This document shows positions 10,367 to 61,099 of a stretch of DNA of 64,000 bases, piece by piece. The notes under the pieces are model-generated. The model was not told where the DNA came from. It was given only the letters and a program-made list of their open reading frames with translations, and searched no databases. Position 1 is the first letter of the stretch. Each line of letters starts with the position of its first letter. Where the stretch lies: positions 32,001 to 96,000 of the forward strand of contig CAWFAK010000008.1 of the NCBI GenBank assembly GCA_963813715.1. The letters run 5' to 3'. The stretch is from an uncultured Planctomycetaceae bacterium. GTDB lineage: Bacteria > Planctomycetota > Planctomycetia > Planctomycetales > Planctomycetaceae. Both the position numbers and the translations under genes were made by a program.

Positions 10367-10881
10367 AGGGTAAAGCTACACGCGGTGGTCGGCAGCGATG
10401 GCTCGACGCTGCGTGGCGCGTGGCTCCCATGCAAAAGGATGAGCGGGCGATGGGGCGGCGGATGTTGAAGCGAGCGGCTGTGCAAGGGTACTTGCTCGCC
10501 GATGCAAATTTCGACTCGAACGAGTTACACGACGTCTGCCTCGAACGCGGCGTGCAACTGGTGGCACCTCCGCGTTACGGATTTGGCCGTCGCCGTGGCC
10601 ATCGGCGTCAGAGTCCCGCTCGGCTGCGATCTCTTGACGCTCTCGAATCCGCAAAGCTCGTTCGGCCGTGCCCTCCATCAAGAACGTAACGCGATCGAAC
10701 GCTACTTCGGAGACTGGAGCACTTGGAGCGACGGATTGCAGGCACTGCCCGCTTGGGTTCGCGGCCACCGACGCGTCCACCGCTGGGTGCAAGGCAAGCT
10801 CATCTTTACCGCCTTGCGACGGCGATGCCAAAAAACGACTTACGTCACGAGATGAAAAAAGTTTCACGCTTCGGGTTGGTA
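10367..10881 (+). repeat. Degenerate direct duplicate of 11345-11864 (3' half of transposase, right end and flank)
   Basis: Near-identical sequence with small deletions and substitutions. Confidence 0.9.
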
Positions 10882-10955
10882 GTCATAAAGACTTGCGCAA
10901 TAAAAAGTTGGTGCTACACATAGTCTCAATCGTAACCACACGAAAGGAGACGGAT

Positions 10956-11837
10956 GTGGAACACCAACTCTGGAAGGCGATTTTGATCCTTCTCAAACAG
11001 GCGAGCAAGCTTCGTCGGTGCACGCGAGAACGATACGGGGCAGACGACATTGTGCAGGTTTGGCTGTGGGCCGTTCTGCACGGTCGGCCTGTGTCCTGGG
11101 CGTGCGATCTTCGGAACTGGCCGCTGCATGAGCGTCGCCGCAAATTGCCATCGTCGAGCACCATGTCGAGACGACTGCGGAGTGCCGAGGTCCAGCAAAT
11201 GCTGCAAGAGATCGAACGTTCTGAACTGGCTCCTCGTGGGAACAAGCCCCTGTATTGGATGATCGATGGCAAGCCTCTGCCGATCGGCGGTTGCTCGAAA
11301 GACCGGCAAGCTGGGTACGGCCGCGCCGCGGGCTGCAAAGCCAAAGGGTACAAGCTACACGCGGTGGTCGGCAGCGATGGCTCGATCGCTGCCTGGCGCG
11401 TGGCTCCCATGCAAAAGGATGAGCGGGCGATGGGGCGGCGGATGTTGAAGCAAGCGGCTGTGCAAGGGTACTTGCTCGCCGATGCAAATTTCGACTCGAA
11501 CCAGTTACACGACGTCTGCCTCGAACGCGGCGTGCAACTGGTGGCACCTCCGCGTTACGGATTTGGCCGTCGCCGTGGCCATCGGCGTCAGAGTCCCGCT
11601 CGGCTGCGATCTCTTGAACTGCTCTCGAATCCGCAAAGCTCGTTCGGCCGTGCCCTCCATCAAGAACGTAACGCGATCGAACGCTACTTCGGATACTTGA
11701 GCACTTGGAGCGCCGGATTGCAGGCACTGCCCGCTTGGGTTCGCGGCCACCGACGCGTCCACCGCTGGGTGCAAGGCAAGCTCATCTTTACCGCCTTGCG
11801 ACGGCGATGCCAAAAAACGACTTACGTCACGAGATGA
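10956..11837 (+). CDS. DDE transposase
   Basis: AAGGAG then GTG; IDGKPLPIGGCSKD, GYKLHAV, LLADANFDSN, RNAIERYFG. Confidence 0.9.
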   Translation: MEHQLWKAILILLKQASKLRRCTRERYGADDIVQVWLWAVLHGRPVSWACDLRNWPLHERRRKLPSSSTMSRRLRSAEVQQMLQEIERSELAPRGNKPLYWMIDGKPLPIGGCSKDRQAGYGRAAGCKAKGYKLHAVVGSDGSIAAWRVAPMQKDERAMGRRMLKQAAVQGYLLADANFDSNQLHDVCLERGVQLVAPPRYGFGRRRGHRRQSPARLRSLELLSNPQSSFGRALHQERNAIERYFGYLSTWSAGLQALPAWVRGHRRVHRWVQGKLIFTALRRRCQKTTYVTR

Positions 11838-14480: not shown

Positions 14481-15500
14481 TTAAGTCGGTTGCTGGCTGA
14501 GCGAGTAGGGTTGGCCCGTCTTCAAGATCGCTGTCATCAGGCACAACAACCGGCGGGCCACGGCGACGATCGCCTTCTTGGCACGCACGCGCAACTTCAA
14601 TCGTTCATAAATCCGACGCCAACGTAACGAGTGCTGAACCAGCCGCCAGGCGGCTTCGACCAGCGTCGAGCGCAGCAGCGTCGAACCGTTCTTCTCCAGG
14701 TGCAGCTCCCGACTCTTGCCCGCACTCTCGCGTTGACCCGGTGAGAGCCCTGCGTAAGCGACGACCCGCTTTTGCGAACCGAAGCGATCAATGTCTGCCA
14801 GCTCGGCCAGCACAACTTCGGTGGTCACGAAGCCCATTCCGGGGATCGTCCGCAACAGCGTCCGCGCTTCCTGCTCGCAAAGCGGCGCCGCCTCGGCGAA
14901 CTCCTTCAGCCGGGCGTTGACGGCCAGCAGCTGACGCCGCCCGAAGTGCAACTCTTCGACCATCTGATCCACGGCGAACCGATCCGCTCCCAAGAGAGGC
15001 ACTTGGGCGAGATACGCCAACCCGTCCACGGTGAACAGACTGGGACGATCCGCGTTGTAGTCGCAGAGAATGCGGGGCAGACGGTTCTTGACGGAGGTCA
15101 ATCGCCGTTGAATGCCCCCTCGATGGCGCACTAATCGCCGATGCTCCTGCTGCCGCGGAGTCGCGCGATAAGAGGTCGGAATCATGTCCAAGGCCAGGAA
15201 CTCCGCGAGGATTTGCACGTCGAGCCGATCGCTTTTACGCGTGCTCTCGGCAATCACACGCAGCTTCTTGGGGTGAGCCAACAACACGCGATGGGCCACG
15301 GGCTCGATCAATCGCACGAACCATTCGTAGCTGGCGGTCGCTTCCACGACAGCCTCGAACTCCCCGAGCCTCTCGAAAAATGCGAGGATGCTCCGCTCTT
15401 CGCCACAACGCACGGTCCGACGCTCCAAAACCCGCCGCAATTGGTCGACGACGCAAATCGTGATAGTCTGCTTGTGTAGGTCGCAGCCGGCAAATTTCAT
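14481..15500 (-). CDS. IS110-family DEDD recombinase/transposase
   Basis: GCDLHK, VVEAT, KSDRLD, LLRTIPGMG, AYAGLSP..RESAGK, AIVAVARRL. Confidence 0.95.
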   Translation of the reverse strand: MKFAGCDLHKQTITICVVDQLRRVLERRTVRCGEERSILAFFERLGEFEAVVEATASYEWFVRLIEPVAHRVLLAHPKKLRVIAESTRKSDRLDVQILAEFLALDMIPTSYRATPRQQEHRRLVRHRGGIQRRLTSVKNRLPRILCDYNADRPSLFTVDGLAYLAQVPLLGADRFAVDQMVEELHFGRRQLLAVNARLKEFAEAAPLCEQEARTLLRTIPGMGFVTTEVVLAELADIDRFGSQKRVVAYAGLSPGQRESAGKSRELHLEKNGSTLLRSTLVEAAWRLVQHSLRWRRIYERLKLRVRAKKAIVAVARRLLCLMTAILKTGQPYSLSQQPT

Positions 15501-35998: not shown

Positions 35999-38766
<2,768 letters not shown>

Positions 38767-42186: not shown

Positions 42187-45100
42187 TCATCCTTTTTCAA
42201 ACGGGATGTGTCCACCCCGACTTGGGCCGAAGGCGTAGGGGTTCTCGTGGGTGTGGGTTTTCCCCGAGATCCAGAGGCGGAACCGGTCGAGATAGAGGTA
42301 GACGACGGGCGTCGTATAGAGGGTGAGGGCCTGGCTGACGATCAGACCGCCGACAATGGCGATGCCCAACGGACGCCGGAGCTCCGAGCCGGTGCCGGAG
42401 CCCATTGCCAGCGGCAGGCCGCCGAAGAGGGCGGCCAGCGTCGTCATCATGATCGGACGGAAGCGGAGCACGCAGGCGGTGTAGATGGCCTCGACGGGTG
42501 ATGTGTTTTCGTGCCGTTCGGCCGCAATCGCGAAGTCGATCATCATGATGGCGTTTTTCTTCACGATGCCGATCAGCAACAGAATGCCGATCAGTCCCAT
42601 CACGTTGAGTTCGTTGCCGGTCAACAACAGCGCCAAGAGTGCGCCGACGCCGGCCGACGGCAGGGTCGAGAGAATCGTGATCGGGTGGATGTAGCTCTCG
42701 TAGAGAATTCCCAGCACGATGTAGACGGCGGCCAGGGCCGCGGCGATCAGCACCGGCTCGTTCGCCAGAGATTCCTGAAAGGCCTGGGCCGTTCCTTGAA
42801 ACTTACCATGCAGGGTCCCCGGAGCGCCAAGCTCGTGCATGGCGTCGTTGATTTTCTCGACGGCATCTCCGAGGGCACCGCCGGGAGGAAGATTGAATGA
42901 CACGGTGACCGAGGGGAACTGCCCGGAGTGGTTGACGGCCAGCGGCCCCGTGCCGTTGACGATCTTGGCGAACGCTCCCAAGGGCACGCGAACGTTGTTG
43001 CTGCCGTGGACGTAGATGTAATTGAGCGCGCCCGGGTCCTCCCAGAATTTCAGGGGCACCGTCATCACGATGTGGTACTGGTTGAGCTCGGTATAGGTGG
43101 TGGCGACGAATCGCTGACCGAAGGCGTCATAGAGCGCGTTGTCGATGGTCTGCATCGAGATGCCGTACTGGGCGGCGGCGCGGCGGTCGACCGTGACGGT
43201 CGTCTGCAGTCCGGAATTCTGCTGGTCGGAGACGACGTCGACCATCACGTCGGTCAGCGTGCGAAGCTTGCTCACGACGCGGGGGGCCCACTCGTTGAGC
43301 TCGTTCAGGTCGTCGTCCTGCAGGGTGTATTGATATTGCGTGCTGCTCGAGCGGGCGCCGATCCGCAGGTCCTGGTAGGACTGCAGGTAGAGCGTCGCCC
43401 CCGGAATGGGCGAAAGCTTGGTCCGCAGCCGGCCGATGATTTCATCCGCGCTCGAATGGTGTGGGGGCATGAGCACGTCTCGCAGCCAGACGAAGAACTG
43501 GTACGGCGTAGGATGGCCGCCGGACTTGAACGGACTGGGAGTCCGCGGGGCGTAGGTGCGCCTTTCGATGGACTTAAGTGAGACATACATCGACCCTTGG
43601 TTGACGGTGCGGCCGCCGCCTCCTCCTCCTCCGCCCGTGAACGAGATCAGGTTTTCGACGTCGGGATCGTGGCTGACCTCGGTCGTGAACAGCGTCATCA
43701 GCTTGTTCATTTGCTGAAACGACGTGTCCTGGTCGGCCATGATCGTGCCGGTGAGCCTGCCCGCGTCCTGCTGAGGGAAGAAGCCCTTGGGCACCACCAC
43801 GTACAGCCACCCGGTGAAGGCAATGGTCAAGAGGGTGGCGATGATCATCGTGAACTGGTGCCGGAGCACCCACTGCAGGCTCGACTCGTAGCGGGCCAGC
43901 ACCCAGTCGAAGAGCGATTCGAAAAAGCCGTAAATCGGGCCGTGCTTGGCATGGTCGGCCTTCGCCTTGAGCAGCCAGGCGCACATCATTGGGGTAGTCG
44001 TGAGCGACACGCAGAGCGACACGCCGATCGCCACGCTGATGGTCACGGCAAACTCGCGGAACAGCCGCCCGATGATGCCCCCCATCATCAGGATGGGAAT
44101 GAACACCGCCACGAGCGACAGGCTGATCGAGAGCACGGTAAAGCCGATTTCCGCGGCGCCTTTGAGGGCGGCCTGCATCGGCTTCATGCCGGCCTCGAGG
44201 TAGCGGTCGATGTTTTCCAGCACGACGATCGCGTCGTCGACGACGAACCCTGTCGAGATCGTGAGCGCCATCAGCGACAGATTGTCGACGCTGTAACCGA
44301 AGAGGTACATCACGCCGAACGTCCCGATCAGCGAGACGGGCACCGCGACGCTGGGAATGAACGTGGCGCGGGCATCGCGCAGAAACAGGAACACGACCAG
44401 GATCACGAGCGCCACCGAGAGCGACAGGGTCAATTGCACGTCGCGCACCGACGCCCGGATCGTCGCCGTCCGGTCGACCACCTCGGCCATCTTGATTCCC
44501 TGGGGTAAATCGGACATCAACTGCGGCGTCTGGGCGCGGATGCGATCGACGGCGTCGATGATGTTGGCCCCGGGCTGACGGAAGATGATCATCAGCACCG
44601 ACGGTTTGATTTCGCCCGGCCGCGGGCTGAAATAGCCCGACGCGCGGATGTCCTCGACCGAGTCGAGGACGGTCCCGACGTCGGAAATCCGTACGGGCGC
44701 CCCATTGCGGTAGGCGATGATCAACGGCCGGTATTGGTCAGGCTTGAGCAGCTGGTCGTCGGTCGTCAGGAACCAGCTGTGTCCGTTTGTCGACATCTGC
44801 CCCTTGGGCCGATTGGCATTGGCCGTGCTGATCATGGTCCGCACGTCGTCGAGGCCCAGGCCGAAGTTGTTGAGCAAGGTCGGATTGATCTCCAGTCGCA
44901 CGGCCGGGGGCGAGCCGCCGCTGACGAAGACTTGGCCGACCCCGTCGATCTGCGAGAGTTTTTGCGCCAGGATGGTGTTGGCCGCGTCGTAAACTTTGGG
45001 CTTTTCGTAGATATCGGAGTAGAGCGCCGGAATGAGGATCGGGGCGTCGGCCGGGTTGGCCTTGCGCCAGGTCGGCTTCGACGGGAGGTTGGACGGCAGC

Positions 45101-45453
45101 TGGCCGGCCGCCGCGTTGATCGCCGCCTGCACGTCGCGGGCGGCGGCGTCGATGTTGCGATTGAGGTCGAACTGGATGCTGATACTGGTCGAACCGAGGT
45201 AGCTCGTCGAGCTCATCTCGGTGATGCCGGCGATGCGGCCGAACTGCCGCTCGAGCGGCGTGGCCACGGCCGAGGCCATCGTCTCGGGGCTCGCTCCGGG
45301 GAGCGTGGCCTGCACCGAGATCGTCGGAAAGTCGACGGCCGGCAGCGAAGAAACGGGCAAAAAGTTGTAAGCCAGGCCGCCCGCCAGCGCGACGGCCGCC
45401 GTCAACAGCGAGGTGGCGACGGGCCGTCGGATAAACAGAGACGACGGATTCAT
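42187..45453 (-). CDS. mdtC: RND efflux transporter subunit
   Basis: [52 protein letters not shown]; second RND gene of a pair. Confidence 0.9.
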   Translation of the reverse strand: MNPSSLFIRRPVATSLLTAAVALAGGLAYNFLPVSSLPAVDFPTISVQATLPGASPETMASAVATPLERQFGRIAGITEMSSTSYLGSTSISIQFDLNRNIDAAARDVQAAINAAAGQLPSNLPSKPTWRKANPADAPILIPALYSDIYEKPKVYDAANTILAQKLSQIDGVGQVFVSGGSPPAVRLEINPTLLNNFGLGLDDVRTMISTANANRPKGQMSTNGHSWFLTTDDQLLKPDQYRPLIIAYRNGAPVRISDVGTVLDSVEDIRASGYFSPRPGEIKPSVLMIIFRQPGANIIDAVDRIRAQTPQLMSDLPQGIKMAEVVDRTATIRASVRDVQLTLSLSVALVILVVFLFLRDARATFIPSVAVPVSLIGTFGVMYLFGYSVDNLSLMALTISTGFVVDDAIVVLENIDRYLEAGMKPMQAALKGAAEIGFTVLSISLSLVAVFIPILMMGGIIGRLFREFAVTISVAIGVSLCVSLTTTPMMCAWLLKAKADHAKHGPIYGFFESLFDWVLARYESSLQWVLRHQFTMIIATLLTIAFTGWLYVVVPKGFFPQQDAGRLTGTIMADQDTSFQQMNKLMTLFTTEVSHDPDVENLISFTGGGGGGGGRTVNQGSMYVSLKSIERRTYAPRTPSPFKSGGHPTPYQFFVWLRDVLMPPHHSSADEIIGRLRTKLSPIPGATLYLQSYQDLRIGARSSSTQYQYTLQDDDLNELNEWAPRVVSKLRTLTDVMVDVVSDQQNSGLQTTVTVDRRAAAQYGISMQTIDNALYDAFGQRFVATTYTELNQYHIVMTVPLKFWEDPGALNYIYVHGSNNVRVPLGAFAKIVNGTGPLAVNHSGQFPSVTVSFNLPPGGALGDAVEKINDAMHELGAPGTLHGKFQGTAQAFQESLANEPVLIAAALAAVYIVLGILYESYIHPITILSTLPSAGVGALLALLLTGNELNVMGLIGILLLIGIVKKNAIMMIDFAIAAERHENTSPVEAIYTACVLRFRPIMMTTLAALFGGLPLAMGSGTGSELRRPLGIAIVGGLIVSQALTLYTTPVVYLYLDRFRLWISGKTHTHENPYAFGPSRGGHIPFEKG

Positions 45454-48400
45454 CGCGATTCCGCCACGATCGGCTCTTCTTCGGGGCGCGCCATGCCGTG
45501 CGAGGTCTTACCGCCGAACCGCTGCGCCAGCCGATCAAAATAGAGATAGATGACGGGCGTGGTGTACAGTGTGAGCAACTGGCTCAAGAGCAGCCCGCCG
45601 ATGATGGTGATTCCCAGCGGACGCCGCAGCTCCGATCCTGTCCCGCTGCCGACAGCCAGCGGCACGGCCCCGAGCAACGCCGCCATCGTGGTCATCATGA
45701 TCGGCCGGAATCGCAAGAGGCAGGCCTGGTAAATCGCCTTGTCGGGCGACATCCCCTGGTGCCGCTCGGCCTCGAGCGCGAAGTCGATCATCATGATGGC
45801 ATTCTTCTTCACAATGCCGATCAAGAGGATAATGCCGATCAGCCCGATCACGCTCAGATCGATGCCGCAGATCAAAAGCGCGAGCACGGCGCCGACACCG
45901 GCGGAGGGGAGCGTCGAGAGAATCGTGATCGGGTGAATGTAGCTCTCGTAGAGCACTCCCAGCACGATGTAGACGGTGATGAGAGCGGCCAGAATCAGCA
46001 CCGGCTCGTTGGCCAACGACGCCAGAAAGGCCGCCGCAGTTCCCTGAAAGCTGCCCTGGATGCTGGCGGGCATCTTCAAATCGTCCTTGACCTTGTCGAT
46101 CGCATGGACCGCCGTTCCCAGCGAGGCGCCCGGCGCTAGGTTGAAGGAAACGGTCACCACCGGAAATTGCCCCTGGTGGTTGATGGCGATGGGGATCGCC
46201 GATTTCTTGGTCTGCGTGAACGCTGACAAGGGCGCGTGGCCCCCGGCGGTCTGGATGTAAATGTCCTTGAGATCCTCGGGCCGCGCGCTGAAGCTGGGTT
46301 CGACCTCGAGCACGACACGGTATTGATTGAGCTGCGTGAACATGATCGAGATCTGCCGCTGCCCGAATGCGTCGTAGAGCGTGTCGTCGATCAGTTCGGG
46401 CGTCACGCCCAGTCGCGAGGCGGTATCGCGGTCGATCGACAGATGCAGCTGCTGCCCGTTGTTCTGCTGGTCGCTCGCAACGTCGCGGAGCTCGGGAATT
46501 TCCCGCAGCTTTTCCACGAACCGCGGCACCCATACGTTCAGCTCGTCGGCGCTGATGTCTTCGAGGCTGTACTGGAACTGCGTGCGGCTGACGCGGGTCT
46601 CGACCGTCAGGTCCTGCACCGGCTGCATGAACAGGCCGATCCCGGCCACGCGGTCCACGAGCGGCTGCAGCCGGCGAATGACCGTGCTCGAATCGATGCC
46701 CCGCTCGGAGGCGGGCTTGAGGTTGATCTGAATGCGGCCGGTGTTGAGCGTGGGGTTCGTCCCGTCGATGCCGATGAACGACGACAGGCTGTCGACCGCG
46801 TCGTCCTGCAGGATCGCCCGGGCCAGGGCCTGCTGACGGCTGGCCATTGCCTCGAACGACACGTCCTGCGGACCTTCGGAAATGCCCATGATCACGCCCG
46901 TGTCCTGCACAGGGAAAAACCCCTTCGGCACGATCACATAGAGATAAATCGTGGCGACGAGCGTGATGAGGAAGACGAACAGTGTCATCGGCTGGTGGCG
47001 TAGCACCACCTGCACGGTCTTGCCGTAAAGGGCGATGGTGCTCTCGAAGAGCTGCTCCGAAGTGCGGTAGAACCAGCTCTGCTTGTCCTCGGGCTTATGG
47101 CGCAGAAGGCGGGCCGCCATCATCGGCGTCAGTGTCAGCGAAACGATCGCCGAAATCAGGATCGTCACGCTTAGTGTGACGGCAAACTCCCGGAACAGCC
47201 GGCCGACGACGTCGCCCATGAACAACAGCGGGATCAATACCGCGATCAGCGAAATGCTCAGCGAGATGATCGTAAAGCCGATTTCGGCCGAGCCCTTGAG
47301 CGCGGCGGGCAGTGGCTCTTCGCCCATTTCGATGTAGCGGGCGATGTTTTCGATCATCACGATCGCGTCGTCGACCACGAAGCCGGTCGAAATCGTCAGC
47401 GCCATTAACGTCAGGTTGTTGAGGCTGAAGTCGAGCATGTACATCACGGCGAACGTGCCCACCAGCGACAACGGCACCGCCACGCTGGGAATCACCGTCG
47501 CCGCGAACGTCCGCAGGAACAGGAAGATCACGAGCACCACCAGGGCGATCGTCAGCATCAGCTCGAACTGCACGTCCTCGACCGAAGCGCGAATCGTCAA
47601 CGTCCGGTCGGTCAGCACGTCGACCTTCACGGCCGCGGGCAGGTTGCTTTTGAGGTCGGGCAAACGCCGCTTGATGTGATCGACGACCTCGATGATGTTC
47701 GCCCCGGGCTGCCGCTGAATGTTGAGAATCACGGCCGGCGTCAGGATCGGTCCCTTGGTGCTGGCCGAGGAGCTCGTCGACTCGCCCTCCTCCCCTTCGG
47801 CGCCCGAGCGCTTCGTGAAACCCATCCACGCCGCCTGGCGCAGATTCTCGACCCCGTCGACCACCGACGCGACGTCGGAGAGGAACACGGGGCCGGTCGG
47901 CCGGTACGCGACCACGAGGTTCTGATATTCCTTGGCCGTCAGCATCTGGTCGTTGGCGGCGATCGTGTAGGCCAGCTTCTTGCCGTCGAAGTTCCCCTTC
48001 GCCTGGTTGACGTTGGCCGCGACGATCGCGTTGCGGACGTCTTCCAGGTTCAGGCCGCGAGACAAAAGCGCCGTCGGATTCAACCGCACGCGAATCGCCG
48101 GCTTTTGTCCCCCCGAAATGCTCACCAGCCCCACGCCCGACATTTGCGCGATCTTTTGCGCGAATCGCGTATCGGCCAGGTCCTCGATCTTCGACAGGGG
48201 CAGCGTGTCGGAGCTGAGGGCCAGCGTGAGAATCGGCGCGTCGGCCGGATTCGTTCTTGTTGTAAATCGGCGGGTTGGGCAGGTCGGCCGGCAGATAGGT
48301 GGCCGCCGCGTTGATCGCCGCCTGCACCTGCTGCTCTTCGACGTCGATGCTGAGCGCCAGGTCGAACTGCAACACGATCACCGAGCTGCCGTCGGAGCTC

Positions 48401-48648
48401 GTCGAAGTCATCTGGTCCAGGCCGGGCACCTGCCCGAACTGCCGCTCCAAAGGCGCCGTCACCGACGACGCCATCACCTCGGGGCTGGCTCCCGGGTAAA
48501 AAGTGACGACCTGAATGGTCGGATAGTCGACCTGCGGCAGCGCCGAGACCGGCAGCTGCTTATAAGCCACGGCTCCGCAGAGCACGATCGCCACCATCAA
48601 CAGCACGGTGGCGACGGGCCGCAGAATGAAGAGTCTCGATGGACTCAT
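45450..48648 (-). CDS. mdtB: RND efflux transporter subunit (frameshift near 48250)
   Basis: [45 protein letters not shown]. Confidence 0.9.
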
Positions 48649-50177
48649 TGTTCTGTTTTCGTCCCGTTCTGTTTCTGATGTCGGGTTCGTCCGGATCCCG
48701 TCTGCGGCGCCGAGGGGGCCTGGTTGGCAGCCGGGGCCGGCAAGTCGCGACCTGTCGCGGTGTCTGAGGAGCCGTCGCTCGCGGTCGACTGCGACTGGTC
48801 CGGGGCGCTCGTCGAGTCGGACTGCGCGGCACTCGCGTCGGCCGTGCTGTCTTTGGCGTTGTCTGACTTGCTAGCGTTTTTGCCTTTGCCCTTCTTGCCT
48901 GTTTTGATGCTGACCTTCGTCACGCCGGGCATGAGCCGGTCGGTTCCCTCCGTGACGACGACCTCGCCCATGGCCAGTCCAGATTCGATGATCGTCTGGT
49001 CGCCTTCGGTCTGGCCGACTTTGAGCATCCGCATTTCGATGTCCTTGTCCCCCGTCACCACGTAGGCGAACGTGCCGTTGGGGCCGCGCTGCACCGCCCC
49101 GGCCGGAACGATCAGCGCGTTCCGCTCGACCTCGATCAGCGTCTTGGCGTTGACGAACTCATTCGGAAACAGCAGGTTGTCCTCGTTCGAGAAGGTGGCC
49201 CGCAGCTTCACCGTGCCGGTCGTCGTGTCGACCAGGTTGTCGATTGCCGTCAGCTTGCCCGAAGCCAGCTTCGTAGCGAGATCGCGGTTCCACGCCTCGA
49301 CCAGCACGTCTTCGCCGCCCTTGAACTTCTGCTGCACGCGGTAAATGTCGTCCTGCGGAATCGTGTAGATCACCGTGATCGGCTGCAGCTGTGTGATCGT
49401 GGCGAGCGTCGTGGCAGCGGCCGCCTGGACCAGGTTGCCCTTGTCGACTTGCCGCAGGCCGATCCGTCCGGCGATCGGGGCCGTGATGTGGCAGTAGATG
49501 ATCTGCAGCTTGGCGGTGTCGATTGCCGCCTGGTCGGTCTTCACCGCTCCCACGAACTGGCCGACCGTTGCCACCTGCGCATCGAGGGTCTGCTGCGAGA
49601 TGGCATTGGTGACGATTAACTTCTGATAGCGCGCCAGGTCCTGGTTGGCCTGCACGAGCGAGGCTTGGTCCTTCGCCAATTGGCCTTCGGCCTGCGATTG
49701 CTGAACCTGATAGGGCCGCGGGTCGATCTCGACGAGCGGATCTCCGGCCTTGACCATCTGCCCTTCGGTGTAAAGCACCTGCATGACTTCGCCGTCGACC
49801 CGGGTCTTGACGACGTCAGTCTGCAGGGCCGTCACCGTCCCCAGGCTCGACAGATACACATTCATGTCGCCTTTGCGGACGGTCGACGTGACGACCGGGA
49901 TCGGCCGTTGCGCCTTCCCCGCGACCCCTTCCTTGGAGGATTGGAAGAGCGTCGTGTGCTCGACCACGTAGTAGCCGCCCCCGCCGGCCGCAACGAGCAG
50001 CAGCAGAATCCAAATCCACGCGCGGCGCTTTTTCCCCGTTTGGGGCCGAAAGCCCGCATCGTGAAGCTCCGCCCGCGACTCGCCCGTGCGGCCGCCATCG
50101 TGGTGATCCGGCTGCGGCCGCGACTGCACGCCGTCGTGGGGCAGCTCCTCAACTTTTCGAGGCTGAACTGTCGTCAT
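48645..50177 (-). CDS. mdtA: RND periplasmic adaptor (MdtA/MuxA)
   Basis: [42 protein letters not shown]. Confidence 0.9.
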
Positions 50178-58146: not shown

Positions 58147-58226
58147 CGGCGCCACAAATAGCCGCACCGATTGGGTGCGTGGAACCGCTGTGCGTGACCT
58201 GCTTCGTGATCTTTCGCGGCAATCAA

Positions 58227-58264
58227 CAAAAAACTCCCGGCGGAAGCTCTCTCCCGCCGGGAGG
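58227..58264 (-). terminator. Intrinsic terminator between convergent genes
   Basis: CTCCCGGCGG...CCGCCGGGAG stem preceded by an A-tract (U-tract on the minus strand). Confidence 0.7.
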
Positions 58265-58284
58265 ATTCGGAACCTGTCGGGCTG

Positions 58285-58731
58285 TTACTTCTGCTTCGCG
58301 CTGCAGCACGCTTTCTTGTCACTGCAGCACTTTTCTCCAGACTGACAACACGCGGACTTCGCGTCGGTTGAGCAGCAGGCCAACTTGGCGTCACAGCAGG
58401 CCAGCTTGGCTTTGCAGCAGTCGGCGACTTGCGCGACGGTCTTCCCCGTCGATTTCATCGCACAACAGCAGCAGGTCTTGGCCGCGGCGGTCGCGACCGT
58501 CCCCTTCAGGCTTGCCGGGTGCGCGGCCATGCAGCAGGCTTTGCCTTCCGCACAGCACTTTGCGCCCTTCTGGCAACAGGCGGGCTTAGTCGCGCTCTGG
58601 CAGCACGGCAAGTTTTGCTGACAACAAGCGAGCTTGGCGGCACAACAATCGAGCGGCTTTTGCTCGGCCGTGACTCCGGGAATCACCAGTCCGAGGCCAA
58701 GGATCGCGCTCACAAACAAATTGACGAGCAT
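58285..58731 (-). CDS. Secreted Cys-rich CC-repeat protein (metallothionein-like)
   Basis: GGAGA RBS, signal peptide, 28 Cys in 148 aa, two modules with identical CC spacing. Confidence 0.8.
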   Translation of the reverse strand: MLVNLFVSAILGLGLVIPGVTAEQKPLDCCAAKLACCQQNLPCCQSATKPACCQKGAKCCAEGKACCMAAHPASLKGTVATAAAKTCCCCAMKSTGKTVAQVADCCKAKLACCDAKLACCSTDAKSACCQSGEKCCSDKKACCSAKQK

Positions 58732-58853
58732 GGGAACTTTCTCCAGAAAAAGAGCGTTGGAAATCCGCTTTCCCTGCGCGAGAACGCGCGCAGTTCAACA
58801 TCCGGTGGACGTCAGGAAGTGCGCCCGGCCAAAACGCCGTCGCACGGAGCGAA

Positions 58854-59282
58854 TCAACAGCGCCAAACGCACTGGAGAAGATGCAAGGGCGGCCCCTCAC
58901 CCATGAGCCAGTCCGACGGAGTGCCGTCGCAGACCGAGGGGAGAACAGGCAGCAGCTCACAGACTGGAATCGGCAGGACCACCGTCGGCGCGACCGACTG
59001 CTGCACGCGCTTGGCTTGCAACGCCGCATCACGCTGACAGCAGCATCGCACGCTCGGCCGACCCGGAACGCCGCCGCAATCAGCCATCTTTCGCACGGTC
59101 CGTCGCTGGCAGCACGACCGCTGGCAACAAGCCCGCTTGGGCTGAGCGGCTTGGTTTTGATCGGAACGGTGCTGATGGGCCTGGGACTGTTCGCCGAAAA
59201 CACTGCTGCAGCACCAGCCGGCCGGCAGAACCATGCCGACGGTGGAAACGAGCAACAGCACTCGAAACAGCCAGAGCTTCAT
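58854..59282 (-). CDS. Cys-rich putative leader protein ending CVWRC
   Basis: TATAAT 9 nt before ATG; signal-like N-terminus; WCC, ACC, SCC, RCCC; terminal GPPLHLLQCVWRC. Confidence 0.7.
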   Translation of the reverse strand: MKLWLFRVLLLVSTVGMVLPAGWCCSSVFGEQSQAHQHRSDQNQAAQPKRACCQRSCCQRRTVRKMADCGGVPGRPSVRCCCQRDAALQAKRVQQSVAPTVVLPIPVCELLPVLPSVCDGTPSDWLMGEGPPLHLLQCVWRC

Positions 59283-59424
59283 ACGCCTGCCATTATACCG
59301 GGCAAAAATGGGCCGGACCACAGATCTTTGCAGTCCGGCCCACCCGCTGTGAATTTTTGAGCGACAAACCGACGCGACAATTCGCCAAGCTCGGCTCTGG
59401 AAGATGCAACGGCCCCGCCACTGA

Positions 59425-60654
59425 TCAGTCGACGGTCCATAAAGTCACGGAGTCGAAATCCTTAATGTAAATCCGATTTCCCGCGGCGATCGGGTAGGCG
59501 TAAGTTCCCTCATCGGCGACTTTGTAGCTGGCAATTTTTTTAAATTTCTCAGCCGGCTCAAAGACGATCAGCTGCCCGTTCGTGGGCAGCGCGAGCAGGA
59601 CGGTGCCGACGTCAACGACCGACCCGTACCCGCGATCGCCGCGGACGCGTTCGGCCGCCCACGCCGGCTTGCCCGTTTCGGCGTTGATGCAGAACAGGAA
59701 GTTGCGGCTCGAAATCCCGAACAGCAAGCCGTTCTTGAGAACCGGCGTGTCGAATTGCACGGACAGCTGCGGGTTCGCCCAAAGCTCTTTCGCCGCGTAC
59801 GAGTCTCCTTGTTTTTCGATCTTGAGCGCCTTGATGCCGCGGAGTGAGCCCGAAATGTAGACGGTATTCCCGCTCACGATGGGAGTGGCGGCGTTGTAAC
59901 CCATTCCGCTCACGGCAAACGGCGTCTGCCAGAGGAGCTTTCCGTCGGCGAGCCCGACGCCCACGAGACTCTTGGCCGTCAGCGCCACAACCATTTTGAG
60001 GCCGTCGACCGTCAGCAGGGCGGGCGAGGCATAGGCCGTGCCATCGCCGGGCCAGTTCCATTTCTCGCCGCCGCTGGCAAGGTCGTACGCCACGATGCCG
60101 CCCTTGCTCTCCCCGCCCAACTGCACGATGCACAGCCCCTCCACTACGATTGGCGAGCACGAAGTGAAAAACCGGGGCGGCTTTTCTGCAGAGTCCGTTT
60201 TGCGCCAGAGGACTTTCGCGCTCGTGGCATCAAAGCAGGACAGAGTTCCCTGCACGCCCAAGGTCACGACTTTTCCGTCGGCCACTGTCGGCGAGCTGCG
60301 CGGTCCCGGGAATTGGGCGGCGGGCCCGCTAGGCGCCTTCGCGGCCTGTTTGTCGGCCCACAGCTCATTACCGGTCATGGCGTCGAGGCAAGAGGCGACT
60401 TCATCGTCATCTCGGCGCGCAAAGACATAGAGCTTGTCGCCGACCAGGGCGGGAGTGGCAACCCCGTTGCCGACGTTCACTTTCCACTTTTGCGTGAGAG
60501 TCTTGGGCCAGGTCGCCGGCGCCTTGAAGCCGGTGGCGATCGCATCCCGGTTGGGACCGCGCCATTGAGGCCAGTCCTGCGCCAATCCCTGGCTCGCGCC
60601 GCACAAGGCCAGGCAGCCGACAACAATTCCCACCCGCCGAATTGCGCTCGTCAT
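59425..60654 (-). CDS. PQQ-like beta-propeller protein
   Basis: QDWPQWRGPNRD, GPRSSPTV, AYASP, TYAYPIAAGNRIYIKD. Confidence 0.9.
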   Translation of the reverse strand: MTSAIRRVGIVVGCLALCGASQGLAQDWPQWRGPNRDAIATGFKAPATWPKTLTQKWKVNVGNGVATPALVGDKLYVFARRDDDEVASCLDAMTGNELWADKQAAKAPSGPAAQFPGPRSSPTVADGKVVTLGVQGTLSCFDATSAKVLWRKTDSAEKPPRFFTSCSPIVVEGLCIVQLGGESKGGIVAYDLASGGEKWNWPGDGTAYASPALLTVDGLKMVVALTAKSLVGVGLADGKLLWQTPFAVSGMGYNAATPIVSGNTVYISGSLRGIKALKIEKQGDSYAAKELWANPQLSVQFDTPVLKNGLLFGISSRNFLFCINAETGKPAWAAERVRGDRGYGSVVDVGTVLLALPTNGQLIVFEPAEKFKKIASYKVADEGTYAYPIAAGNRIYIKDFDSVTLWTVD

Positions 60655-61099
60655 AGCGGCTTCCTCCAAGCTGGTTCGATTGTGTTCCGTTCGACGAACG
60701 AGAAACTGCGATGTCCCCGTTCACCGAAGCCAATTGCCTGCGGCACTCCGCTGAGTCTATCGCGGCACCGAGGGGAATCAATTGCGCAACCGACGGAATC
60801 AATCGCACCTGAAGCAGTATTAACCGGCGACGTGTCCCGGCTGGGCGGACAGCCGCCGTCGCGGGGAGGTCGCCGAGGATTCCGCAATCCCACCGCAACT
60901 GGCGCTCTTAGTTTCATCGTTGTGCTGGTTTTCATCGTTGTGCTGATCGTCGCACGGAGGGAATCGCCGGACTCGGGCGCAGTCTCACGCAGTAGCGTTT
61001 GTCCGACATCCGACAAATGAAGTGTCGCTGCAGAAAATCCGAACCTTTCGCAATGTAACGACCATTCGCGCACGACGTGTCCTCGCCAGGAAATTCCTC

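Follow-up and report, generated by a model that had tools for sequence, protein, structure and literature searches.

A Conserved Planctomycete Gene Pair Encoding a Cysteine-Pair Repeat Protein, a Candidate Exported Metal-Thiolate Sponge, and Its Upstream Partner

The subject of this analysis is a pair of adjacent genes on the minus strand of a 64,000-nucleotide (nt) stretch of DNA from an uncultured Planctomycetaceae bacterium, which is referred to throughout as the window. The downstream gene encodes a small protein composed largely of vicinal cysteine (Cys) pairs, here called the CC protein, and was the object of an original prediction made from the sequence letters alone; the upstream gene encodes a second Cys-containing protein, here called the partner. 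Both genes are real, conserved and under selection; they occur as a tight pair and are found in RNA libraries. In some relatives they stand in operon-like order with genes for Cu(I) export and storage. The features of the CC gene are as follows.

58285..58731 (-): coding sequence of the cysteine-pair repeat protein (CCfam), 148 amino acids plus TAA, supported by homologues and by substitution rates
58666..58731 (-): predicted Sec-type signal peptide, residues 1-22, MLVNLFVSAILGLGLVIPGVTA followed by EQ, from sequence reading and from family conservation as MFTKLFAGSxLxLGLL in two alignments
58531..58650 (-): module 1, residues 28-67, DCC-x5-CC-x5-CC-x7-CC-x5-CC-x5-CC, defined by CC spacing
58462..58473 (-): linker CCCC, residues 87-90, which reads CSCC, CCC or CSC in orthologues
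58303..58422 (-): module 2, residues 104-143, with the spacing of module 1
58741..58744 (-): GGAG ribosome-binding site, 9 nt 5' of the CC gene ATG, in the same place in 70 of 90 loci
58224..58263 (-): intrinsic terminator 3' of the CC gene stop codon, a 13-pair hairpin (10 G-C pairs; 58263..58234) with a 4-nt loop, followed by T6

Counts made on the translation of 58285..58731 (-) reproduced the composition given in the original prediction. The protein contains 28 Cys, every one of them beyond residue 28, and the 126 residues that follow the predicted VTA/EQ cleavage point include 26 Ala and 19 Lys and no Phe, Trp or Tyr. Successive CC pairs are spaced 7,7,9,7,7, then 21 to the CCCC of the linker, then 16, then 7,7,9,7,7 again, and both modules open with DCCxAKLACC, as had been stated. 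The two modules are identical at 25 of their 40 residues and at 13 of the 28 positions outside Cys. Shuffling of the mature sequence yielded at most four seven-residue spacings, compared with the eight observed, and eight or more appeared in none of 100,000 shuffles. The ribosome-binding site and the downstream terminator that had been proposed are also in place, and the N-terminus is a predicted signal peptide, as the earlier reading had it, with a hydrophobic core, small residues at -3 and -1, and family-wide conservation.

The ratio of nonsynonymous to synonymous substitution rates (dN/dS) of the CC gene was 0.11-0.23 in comparisons with six orthologues. The annotated frame, and not the antisense frames that overlap it, is therefore the one that is selected, and the CC gene is real and under purifying selection. 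No paralogue was detected in its own genome, where four further matches all had E values of at least 0.08. A database protein of 99 amino acids (P0005) is near-identical to the CC protein of the window and runs out of frame after residue 64; its tail follows the frame of an open reading frame (ORF) at 58391..58576 (-), which points to a frameshift, or to faulty assembly, in a different sample.

A word-indexed search with the CC protein returned 11 relatives, and phmmer, run exhaustively against 1.84 billion representative proteins, found 107 clusters at E <= 1e-3, including 10 at E <= 1e-10 and two at E <= 1e-30. These relatives bear out the idea of a family with conserved spacing. All share a common build, in which a signal-like N-terminus (consensus MFTKxxAGSxLxLGLL) is followed by DCCxxKLACC and further CC pairs. 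Across 110 proteins, 641 of 880 CC-to-CC intervals are exactly seven residues and 103 are exactly nine, and lone Cys outside CC runs account for 91 of 2064 Cys. The repeat consensus is CC-[AED]-[EKA]-[GKN]-[LKQ]-[AK], with Gly as the commonest residue (32%) at the third linker position. The usual member contains nine CC pairs with the spacing 7,7,9,7,7,7,7,7. Judged by sequence comparison, the two-module protein of the window, with six pairs in each module, is a lineage variant of this nine-pair module, which has been duplicated in its entirety in other lineages (loci L012, L019, L070, L101 and L104).

The family libraries searched were Pfam-A (2025 copy) and NCBIfam 20.0. The CC protein of the window matched no family at E <= 0.1 in Pfam or at E <= 1 in NCBIfam, and none of seven family members matched a Pfam family at E <= 1, the metallothionein families, including SmtA/BmtA PF02069, among them. 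The sole match in a search of PDB sequences with the family profile was C3a anaphylatoxin, which was rejected as being at chance level (E 0.038), and three unnamed clusters in the ESM Atlas (0.86-0.87) were set aside as lying under the level that counts as a lead. Foldseek found no match in the PDB at E <= 10 with the AlphaFold2 model of the CC protein, a result of little weight given the low confidence of that model. The earlier statement that the family was not a recognized one thus stands for Pfam, NCBIfam, PDB sequences and Foldseek, none of which offered a characterized match. In the databases, members of this family and of the partner family are named only "hypothetical" or "secreted protein," and no description of either was found in the literature; the supplementary CutF-like lists of PMC9973294, which could hold the partner family, were outside the scope of that search. 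Both families are invisible to annotation because they are short, lie outside Pfam and NCBIfam and are labelled "hypothetical."

Carriers with an organism name are metagenome-assembled genomes of Planctomycetota (Planctomycetaceae, Pirellulaceae, Pirellulales, Gemmatales and Schlesneria), and nearly all located members come from this phylum. A 2135-bp contig labelled Candidatus Paceibacterota (L015) carries a pair that falls among planctomycete sequences on the tree, and a partner homologue occurs on a short contig labelled Nitrospirales (P0114); mis-binning is likely for both. At L041 (9765..10172, genome G344) the CC gene has decayed, in that HC, SC or VC replaces several of the pairs and the repeat is cut short, and the partner upstream of it is still detectable (E 1.4e-5). 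This copy is probably a pseudogene in the making.

The partner gene, which had no place in the original prediction, is an obligate companion of the CC gene. Its features and those of the surrounding noncoding DNA are the following.

58854..59282 (-): coding sequence of CCnbr, the conserved upstream partner, 142 amino acids plus TGA
59208..59225 (-): PAGWCC of the partner
59106..59129 (-): CCQRSCCQ of the partner
59028..59045 (-): CCCQRD of the partner
58857..58895 (-): C-terminal GPPLHLLQCVWRC of the partner
58774..58793 (-): inverted repeat CTGCGCG-N6-CGCGCAG between the partner and the CC gene, with arms invariant in 10 of 11 aligned loci
59292..59297 (-): TATAAT, a -10-like box that ends 9 nt before the partner ATG

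Of 20 genome-collection loci, 18 have a partner homologue directly upstream of the CC gene on the same strand (L025 is cut by the contig end), as do 61 of the 63 metagenome loci whose upstream sequence extends for 450 bp or more; the same holds for four of seven loci retrieved after a phylum search. The two genes of the window are 122 nt apart, a distance that is also the median for the 90 loci that hold both genes. Partner dN/dS values were 0.21-0.49. Conserved positions comprise P20-x-G22-x-C24, CC57-58 (usually CCH), CCC80-82 and the C-terminal tail, and the protein ends, with few exceptions among the 90 loci, in the 15 residues xxGP[PR]L[HQ][VIL]L[QLH]CVW[RL]C-stop. This stop-ending tail is the sole long, strongly conserved stretch of the protein.

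A profile search returned 57 relatives of the partner, all "hypothetical" except for one annotated "Secreted protein" in the cultured species Lignipirellula cremea. Among 16 homologues tested, none matched a Pfam family at E <= 1, DUF2946 (PF11162) included, and no NCBIfam family was assigned. The NCBIfam entry HYC_CC_PP was considered and rejected, having matched one of the 16 at E 0.02 with 15 bits, compared with a cut-off of 28. AlphaFold2 predicted a helix at residues 2-18 (predicted local distance difference test, pLDDT, 82-90) and no confident fold beyond it (mean pLDDT 56.2; 55-row alignment). Prediction of a complex between partner residues 19-142 and residues 23-148 of the mature CC protein gave scores of 0.00 and 0.00, no verdict either way. 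At L024 (2879..3325) the partner homologue contains two in-frame stop codons, and the CC match at this locus is also short.

The inverted repeat between the two genes is found as CTGCGC-N(3-16)-GCGCAG in 31 of 90 loci and could represent an RNA hairpin or a protein-binding site. It is situated ~30 nt upstream of the GGAG and leaves the ribosome-binding site uncovered. No covariation was seen in its arms among the 11 aligned loci, and the intergenic region folds no better than shuffled sequences (z = -1.08). A TATnnT is present at the same distance from the partner ATG in six of six aligned orthologous loci. Because the TATAAT of the window ends only 9 nt before the partner ATG, the leader would be very short or absent, and the message is probably leaderless or nearly so. 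A sigma-70 scan found no promoter under its rule, and by eye the -35 element for this TATAAT matches at only three of six positions.

Public sequencing runs holding the 1.2-kb stretch numbered 20, from 20 studies, and six of them were metatranscriptomes. Four RNA runs from four studies (X5, X11, X16 and X20) were compared with 5 kb around the pair. The RNA contigs of X11, X16 and X20 cover ~58268..59268, a span whose limits are a point just short of the terminator stem and one 14-24 nt into the partner coding sequence; they begin at 58268 in X11 and 58276 in X16 and end at 59258-59268 in all three, and single contigs bridge both genes in X11 (58552-59258) and X20 (58590-59259). Assembled contigs of this kind establish that the sequence occurs in RNA libraries; they do not speak to its level or strand or to whether one transcript spans it, and the uncovered parts of the stretch in X16 and X20 carry no information. 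The end points that the contigs share are only a weak hint. X5 was set aside as evidence of transcription, since its 2956-nt contig crosses convergent genes and may hold DNA. The presence of the CC gene in RNA libraries from several studies supports the expression that the original prediction presupposed. The pair constitutes one conserved module, probably carried on one transcript.

What such a protein might do is suggested first by its composition. After the first CC, Cys makes up 22% of the residues of the 110 family proteins and aromatic residues 0.5% (47 of 9121), a make-up that resembles that of metal-thiolate proteins and not that of a protein with a hydrophobic core. The same regularity would fit a structural or protective protein, perhaps an envelope component, in which disulfides between repeats stiffen a small, solenoid-like exported chain that has no role in metal binding. 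Such a disulfide ladder would suit export into an oxidizing compartment, the strict seven-residue period, the absence of metal genes from most loci and the regular helical turns of 4-6 residues that AlphaFold2 places at each CC with no metal included (pLDDT 74-83 over residues 30-60). The Cys count is even in 48 of 68 full-looking family members, but it is odd in the other 20, and the number of Cys varies among orthologues. This unkept parity, together with the variation of the linker among orthologues, argues against an all-disulfide design. No match was found among solved disulfide-rich folds, the thiol-reducing TlpA-like neighbours described below point to reduced Cys, and the recurrent linkage to CopA-type ATPase and Csp1-like genes also speaks for a metal. 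The ladder is judged an unlikely explanation of the CC protein.

A precedent for a metal-thiolate protein of this kind is Csp1, an exported protein that stores many Cu(I) ions on thiolates and that Vita and colleagues reportedly described in 2015 as an exported, Cys-lined Cu(I) store. The CC protein resembles Csp1 and Csp3 in being Cys-rich and without another obvious function. It differs from them (TIGR04401 "TAT_Cys_rich"; DUF326, PF03860) in lacking any NCBIfam match at E <= 1 or Pfam match, in its signal, which appears to be Sec-like rather than Tat, and in the arrangement of its Cys. Csp proteins contain single Cys in a CxxxC/CxxC register on the long helices of a four-helix bundle, whereas the CC protein has vicinal pairs every seven residues and no long helix in its low-confidence AlphaFold2 model, which suggests that it does not form such a bundle.

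With metallothioneins (SmtA/BmtA PF02069, MymT and the CC-motif metallothioneins of ciliates and fungi) the CC protein shares small size, a high Cys content, scarcity of aromatic residues, modularity and tandem duplication, yet its arrangement is strictly CC-x5-CC, compared with CxC or CxxC. A further difference is compartment: the bacterial metallothioneins known to us are cytoplasmic and have no signal peptide, as is the case for SmtA/BmtA, whereas the CC protein is predicted to be exported. PMC11237414 reports PmtA to be at the surface.

Gene order in relatives provides the second line of evidence. The loci compared were 27 from genomes and 78 from metagenomes, and at 95% identity the metagenome loci make up 63 clusters. 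There is overlap between the two sets, given that L013 and L053 seem to be one sequence. Genes for a CopA-type ATPase and/or a Csp1-like protein follow on the same strand at six of the 27 genome loci, and at 10 of the 53 metagenome loci with at least 300 bp of downstream sequence. A full-length P1B-type ATPase is encoded directly downstream, on the same strand, at L012, L016, L018, L069 and L070, and truncated or contig-end copies are present at L011 (an N-terminal piece at the contig end), L023 (a truncated copy), L043, L046, L047, L048, L049 and L068. The three ATPases tested (L012, L016 and L018) scored 617-622 bits against TIGR01511, the cut-off being 397, and are of the P1B-1 type, with YHS and two HMBD domains and CPC and MSFSS motifs.

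Genes for Cys-rich four-helix proteins of the Csp1 family or DUF326, which carry signal peptides, are found between or beside the CC gene and the ATPase gene at L012, L013, L023, L049, L053, L070 and L072. The one at L070:7637-8077 matches DUF326, and that at L012:8793-9392 matches TIGR04401 (6e-11) with 42.7 bits; these neighbours are called Csp1-like, not Csp1, because this score lies under the cut-off of 100. Since Csp1-like and CC genes both stand beside a CopA-type ATPase gene, both types of protein occur in one copper locus. TlpA-like AhpC/TSA-thioredoxin genes are located directly upstream on the same strand at L019, L074, L101, L104 and L114, and Thioredoxin_3 proteins are encoded at L018, L087 and L089. 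The metal sponge of the original prediction gains independent support from this context of CopA-type ATPases, Csp1-like storage proteins and TlpA-like thioredoxins, insofar as gene context can speak to function.

What is said here on export, on the binding of a metal and which metal it is, and on what the partner does is inferred from these sequences and their surroundings. The CC protein is, with somewhat better than an even chance, an exported thiolate sponge for Cu(I) or another soft metal. The simplest reading is a thiolate-rich Cu(I) binder because the protein has no core, its vicinal thiols are periodic, Cys parity is not kept and, in part of the family, the order with copper genes is operon-like. 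According to this proposal, a Sec-exported, core-less chain would use its 14 vicinal Cys pairs, most of them at a seven-residue period, to form polynuclear thiolate clusters with Cu(I), or with a different thiophilic metal, in the periplasm. It would thereby buffer or store the Cu(I), and possibly the Ag(I), that CopA pumps out, in a role like that of Csp1 and with a different architecture.

Cys chemistry is not specific to copper, and the protein might instead be a sponge or carrier for another thiophile (Zn, Cd, Hg, As(III) or Ag), or might serve in the periplasm as a thiol buffer that is sacrificed to oxidants or electrophiles. Genes for DinB-family proteins (window, L039 and L093), thioredoxin-like proteins, a chromate transporter (L058), a superoxide dismutase (L099) and a universal stress protein (L045) are found as neighbours and would be compatible with a function of this type. 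However, the metal genes that recur are solely of Cu(I) type, namely those for P1B-1 ATPases, Csp1-like proteins and a CusB-like protein with HMBD, and ArsR, MerR, Zn or Cd genes do not recur among the loci. A non-copper or sacrificial function has, in our estimate, only a small chance of being correct. Far less probable is that the CC protein is the precursor of a ribosomally synthesized and post-translationally modified peptide (RiPP), a Cys-rich peptide carrying thioether, thioamide or similar modifications, whose N-terminus would serve as a leader peptide. It is a small Cys-rich ORF product with a conserved N-terminal part, and at L037 a radical SAM gene is situated directly upstream of the pair. 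That gene belongs to the PA0069 family, for which we know of no link to peptide maturation, and was seen at one of the 27 genome loci. What makes a RiPP precursor unlikely is that neither a maturase nor a protease or exporter turns up repeatedly across the 27 genome and 78 metagenome loci; in addition, the N-terminus looks like an ordinary signal peptide.

Several observations weigh against the proposal of a copper sponge. The copper linkage is confined to a minority of loci and is phylogenetically clustered, and may reflect one ancestral arrangement. In the partner tree, every copper-linked locus falls in one 57-row part that also includes the window, so a single origin of the arrangement is possible; the ATPase-linked L016 is sister to the 13-row clade of the window (SH-aLRT 90, not starred). 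Neighbours beyond the pair vary widely and are unrelated in most of the 27 genome and 78 metagenome loci. No copper gene adjoins the pair in the window or in its closest relatives (L006-L010 and L094), and the copper ATPase and Csp-like genes of the window's own genome are on other contigs. The family is rare, being found in eight of 401 genomes of an even sample of the phylum, the window's own genome counted. AlphaFold2 returned a model of the CC protein with a mean pLDDT of 58.6 and only short turns at each CC. Finally, once exported through Sec, a protein with 28 Cys would face the oxidizing machinery of the periplasm, and reduced thiols are an assumption of the sponge proposal.

The partner, for which no globular fold is predicted, has a membrane or signal helix at its N-terminus and a near-invariant tail at its other end, and three of its Cys motifs are conserved. 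Two roles have about equal weight. As a membrane-tethered helper, it would receive, pass on or hold metal, or load the sponge or tether it at the membrane; as a leader ORF, by analogy with CutF and CruR, it would sense copper and set the translation of the sponge. According to three sources (PMC9973294; bioRxiv 10.1101/2025.02.05.636593; PMC9426467), proteins of the CutF/CruR type are exported and shorter than 150 amino acids; they carry a signal peptide and a Cys motif and, at the C-terminus, an arrest motif that contains Pro. Their genes precede copper genes, and copper on the nascent chain alters ribosome stalling and with it expression of the downstream gene. The accessible part of PMC9973294 pools phyla beyond three as "other" and does not name Planctomycetota.

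Measured by the rule set in that part of PMC9973294, the partner resembles CutF, CruR and CopL (DUF2946) in its length of 142 amino acids, its N-terminal signal-like helix and its Cys motifs. Its resemblance to CutF extends to a PP within the last 15 residues in the window (GPPLHLLQCVWRC; GEGPPLHLLQCVWRC), a same-strand gene that follows at 122 nt, a distance within the rule, the occurrence of relatives by copper homeostasis genes and the conserved hairpin between the partner and the CC gene. On the other hand, PP is found in just 46 of 90 loci and GP in 63, the conserved tail being GP[PR]L..L.CVW[RL]C; none of the homologues tested matched DUF2946 or another Pfam family; and the hairpin spares the ribosome-binding site, shows no covariation and stands in a region with no folding advantage over shuffles.

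A bolder and doubtful extension would make the pair a self-contained copper-responsive periplasmic module of two undescribed families, a nascent-chain sensor and a metal store of new architecture. The partner would then be a new sequence class that follows CutF/CruR logic with no sequence kinship to it: its periplasm-facing CC, CCH and CCC would bind copper at a time when the GP[PR]L..L.CVW[RL]C tail occupied the ribosome tunnel at the stop codon, and the intergenic hairpin would relay the gating of translation or stability of the downstream message. In the store, the CC pairs at their heptad period would wrap a polynuclear Cu(I)-thiolate chain.

Few proteins are known to buffer copper outside the bacterial cytoplasm, among them Csp1, CusF, CopC, PcoE/SilE and CueP. 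If the copper sponge proposal is correct, a core-less protein exported by Sec, in which vicinal pairs bring Cys to ~22% of the residues, would represent a new structural answer to this task and a test case for keeping thiolates reduced in an oxidizing compartment. The partner may extend the exported nascent-chain copper sensors CutF and CruR to a new phylum and a new sequence class, and under the bolder extension the CC protein would be the first bacterial exported protein of metallothionein type with no helical-bundle scaffold. New here are the two sequence families, the architecture and the compartment; Cys-rich metal buffering and sensing by upstream ORFs were already known. The presence of the module in soil RNA libraries, and of the partner family in cultured Lignipirellula cremea, makes experiments feasible.

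The neighbours of the pair in the window encode PQQ_2 beta-propeller, DinB, RidA and DUF1569 proteins. PQQ_2/BamB-like beta-propellers with signal peptides occur near the pair in the window (59425..60669 (-)) and at L037, L074 and L110, with 24-29% identity, a recurrence that may be due to chance because this fold is common in planctomycetes. The PA0069-family radical SAM gene at L037 (10690..11841 (-); 486 bits, cut-off 360), a type of neighbour seen at this locus only, is on the same strand as the pair, and a Thioredoxin_7-PDZ protein is also encoded near the pair there. A resistance-nodulation-division (RND) efflux locus is located in the window ~8 kb from the pair (42190..50177 (-)), with an HlyD-type adaptor and two adjacent AcrB-like ORFs of 1088 and 897 amino acids, the second of which begins at profile position 169. 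Transposase genes of the window are found at 10668..11834 (+) (DDE_Tnp_1), 14484..15500 (-) (IS110 family) and 37355..38623 (-) (DDE_Tnp_1).

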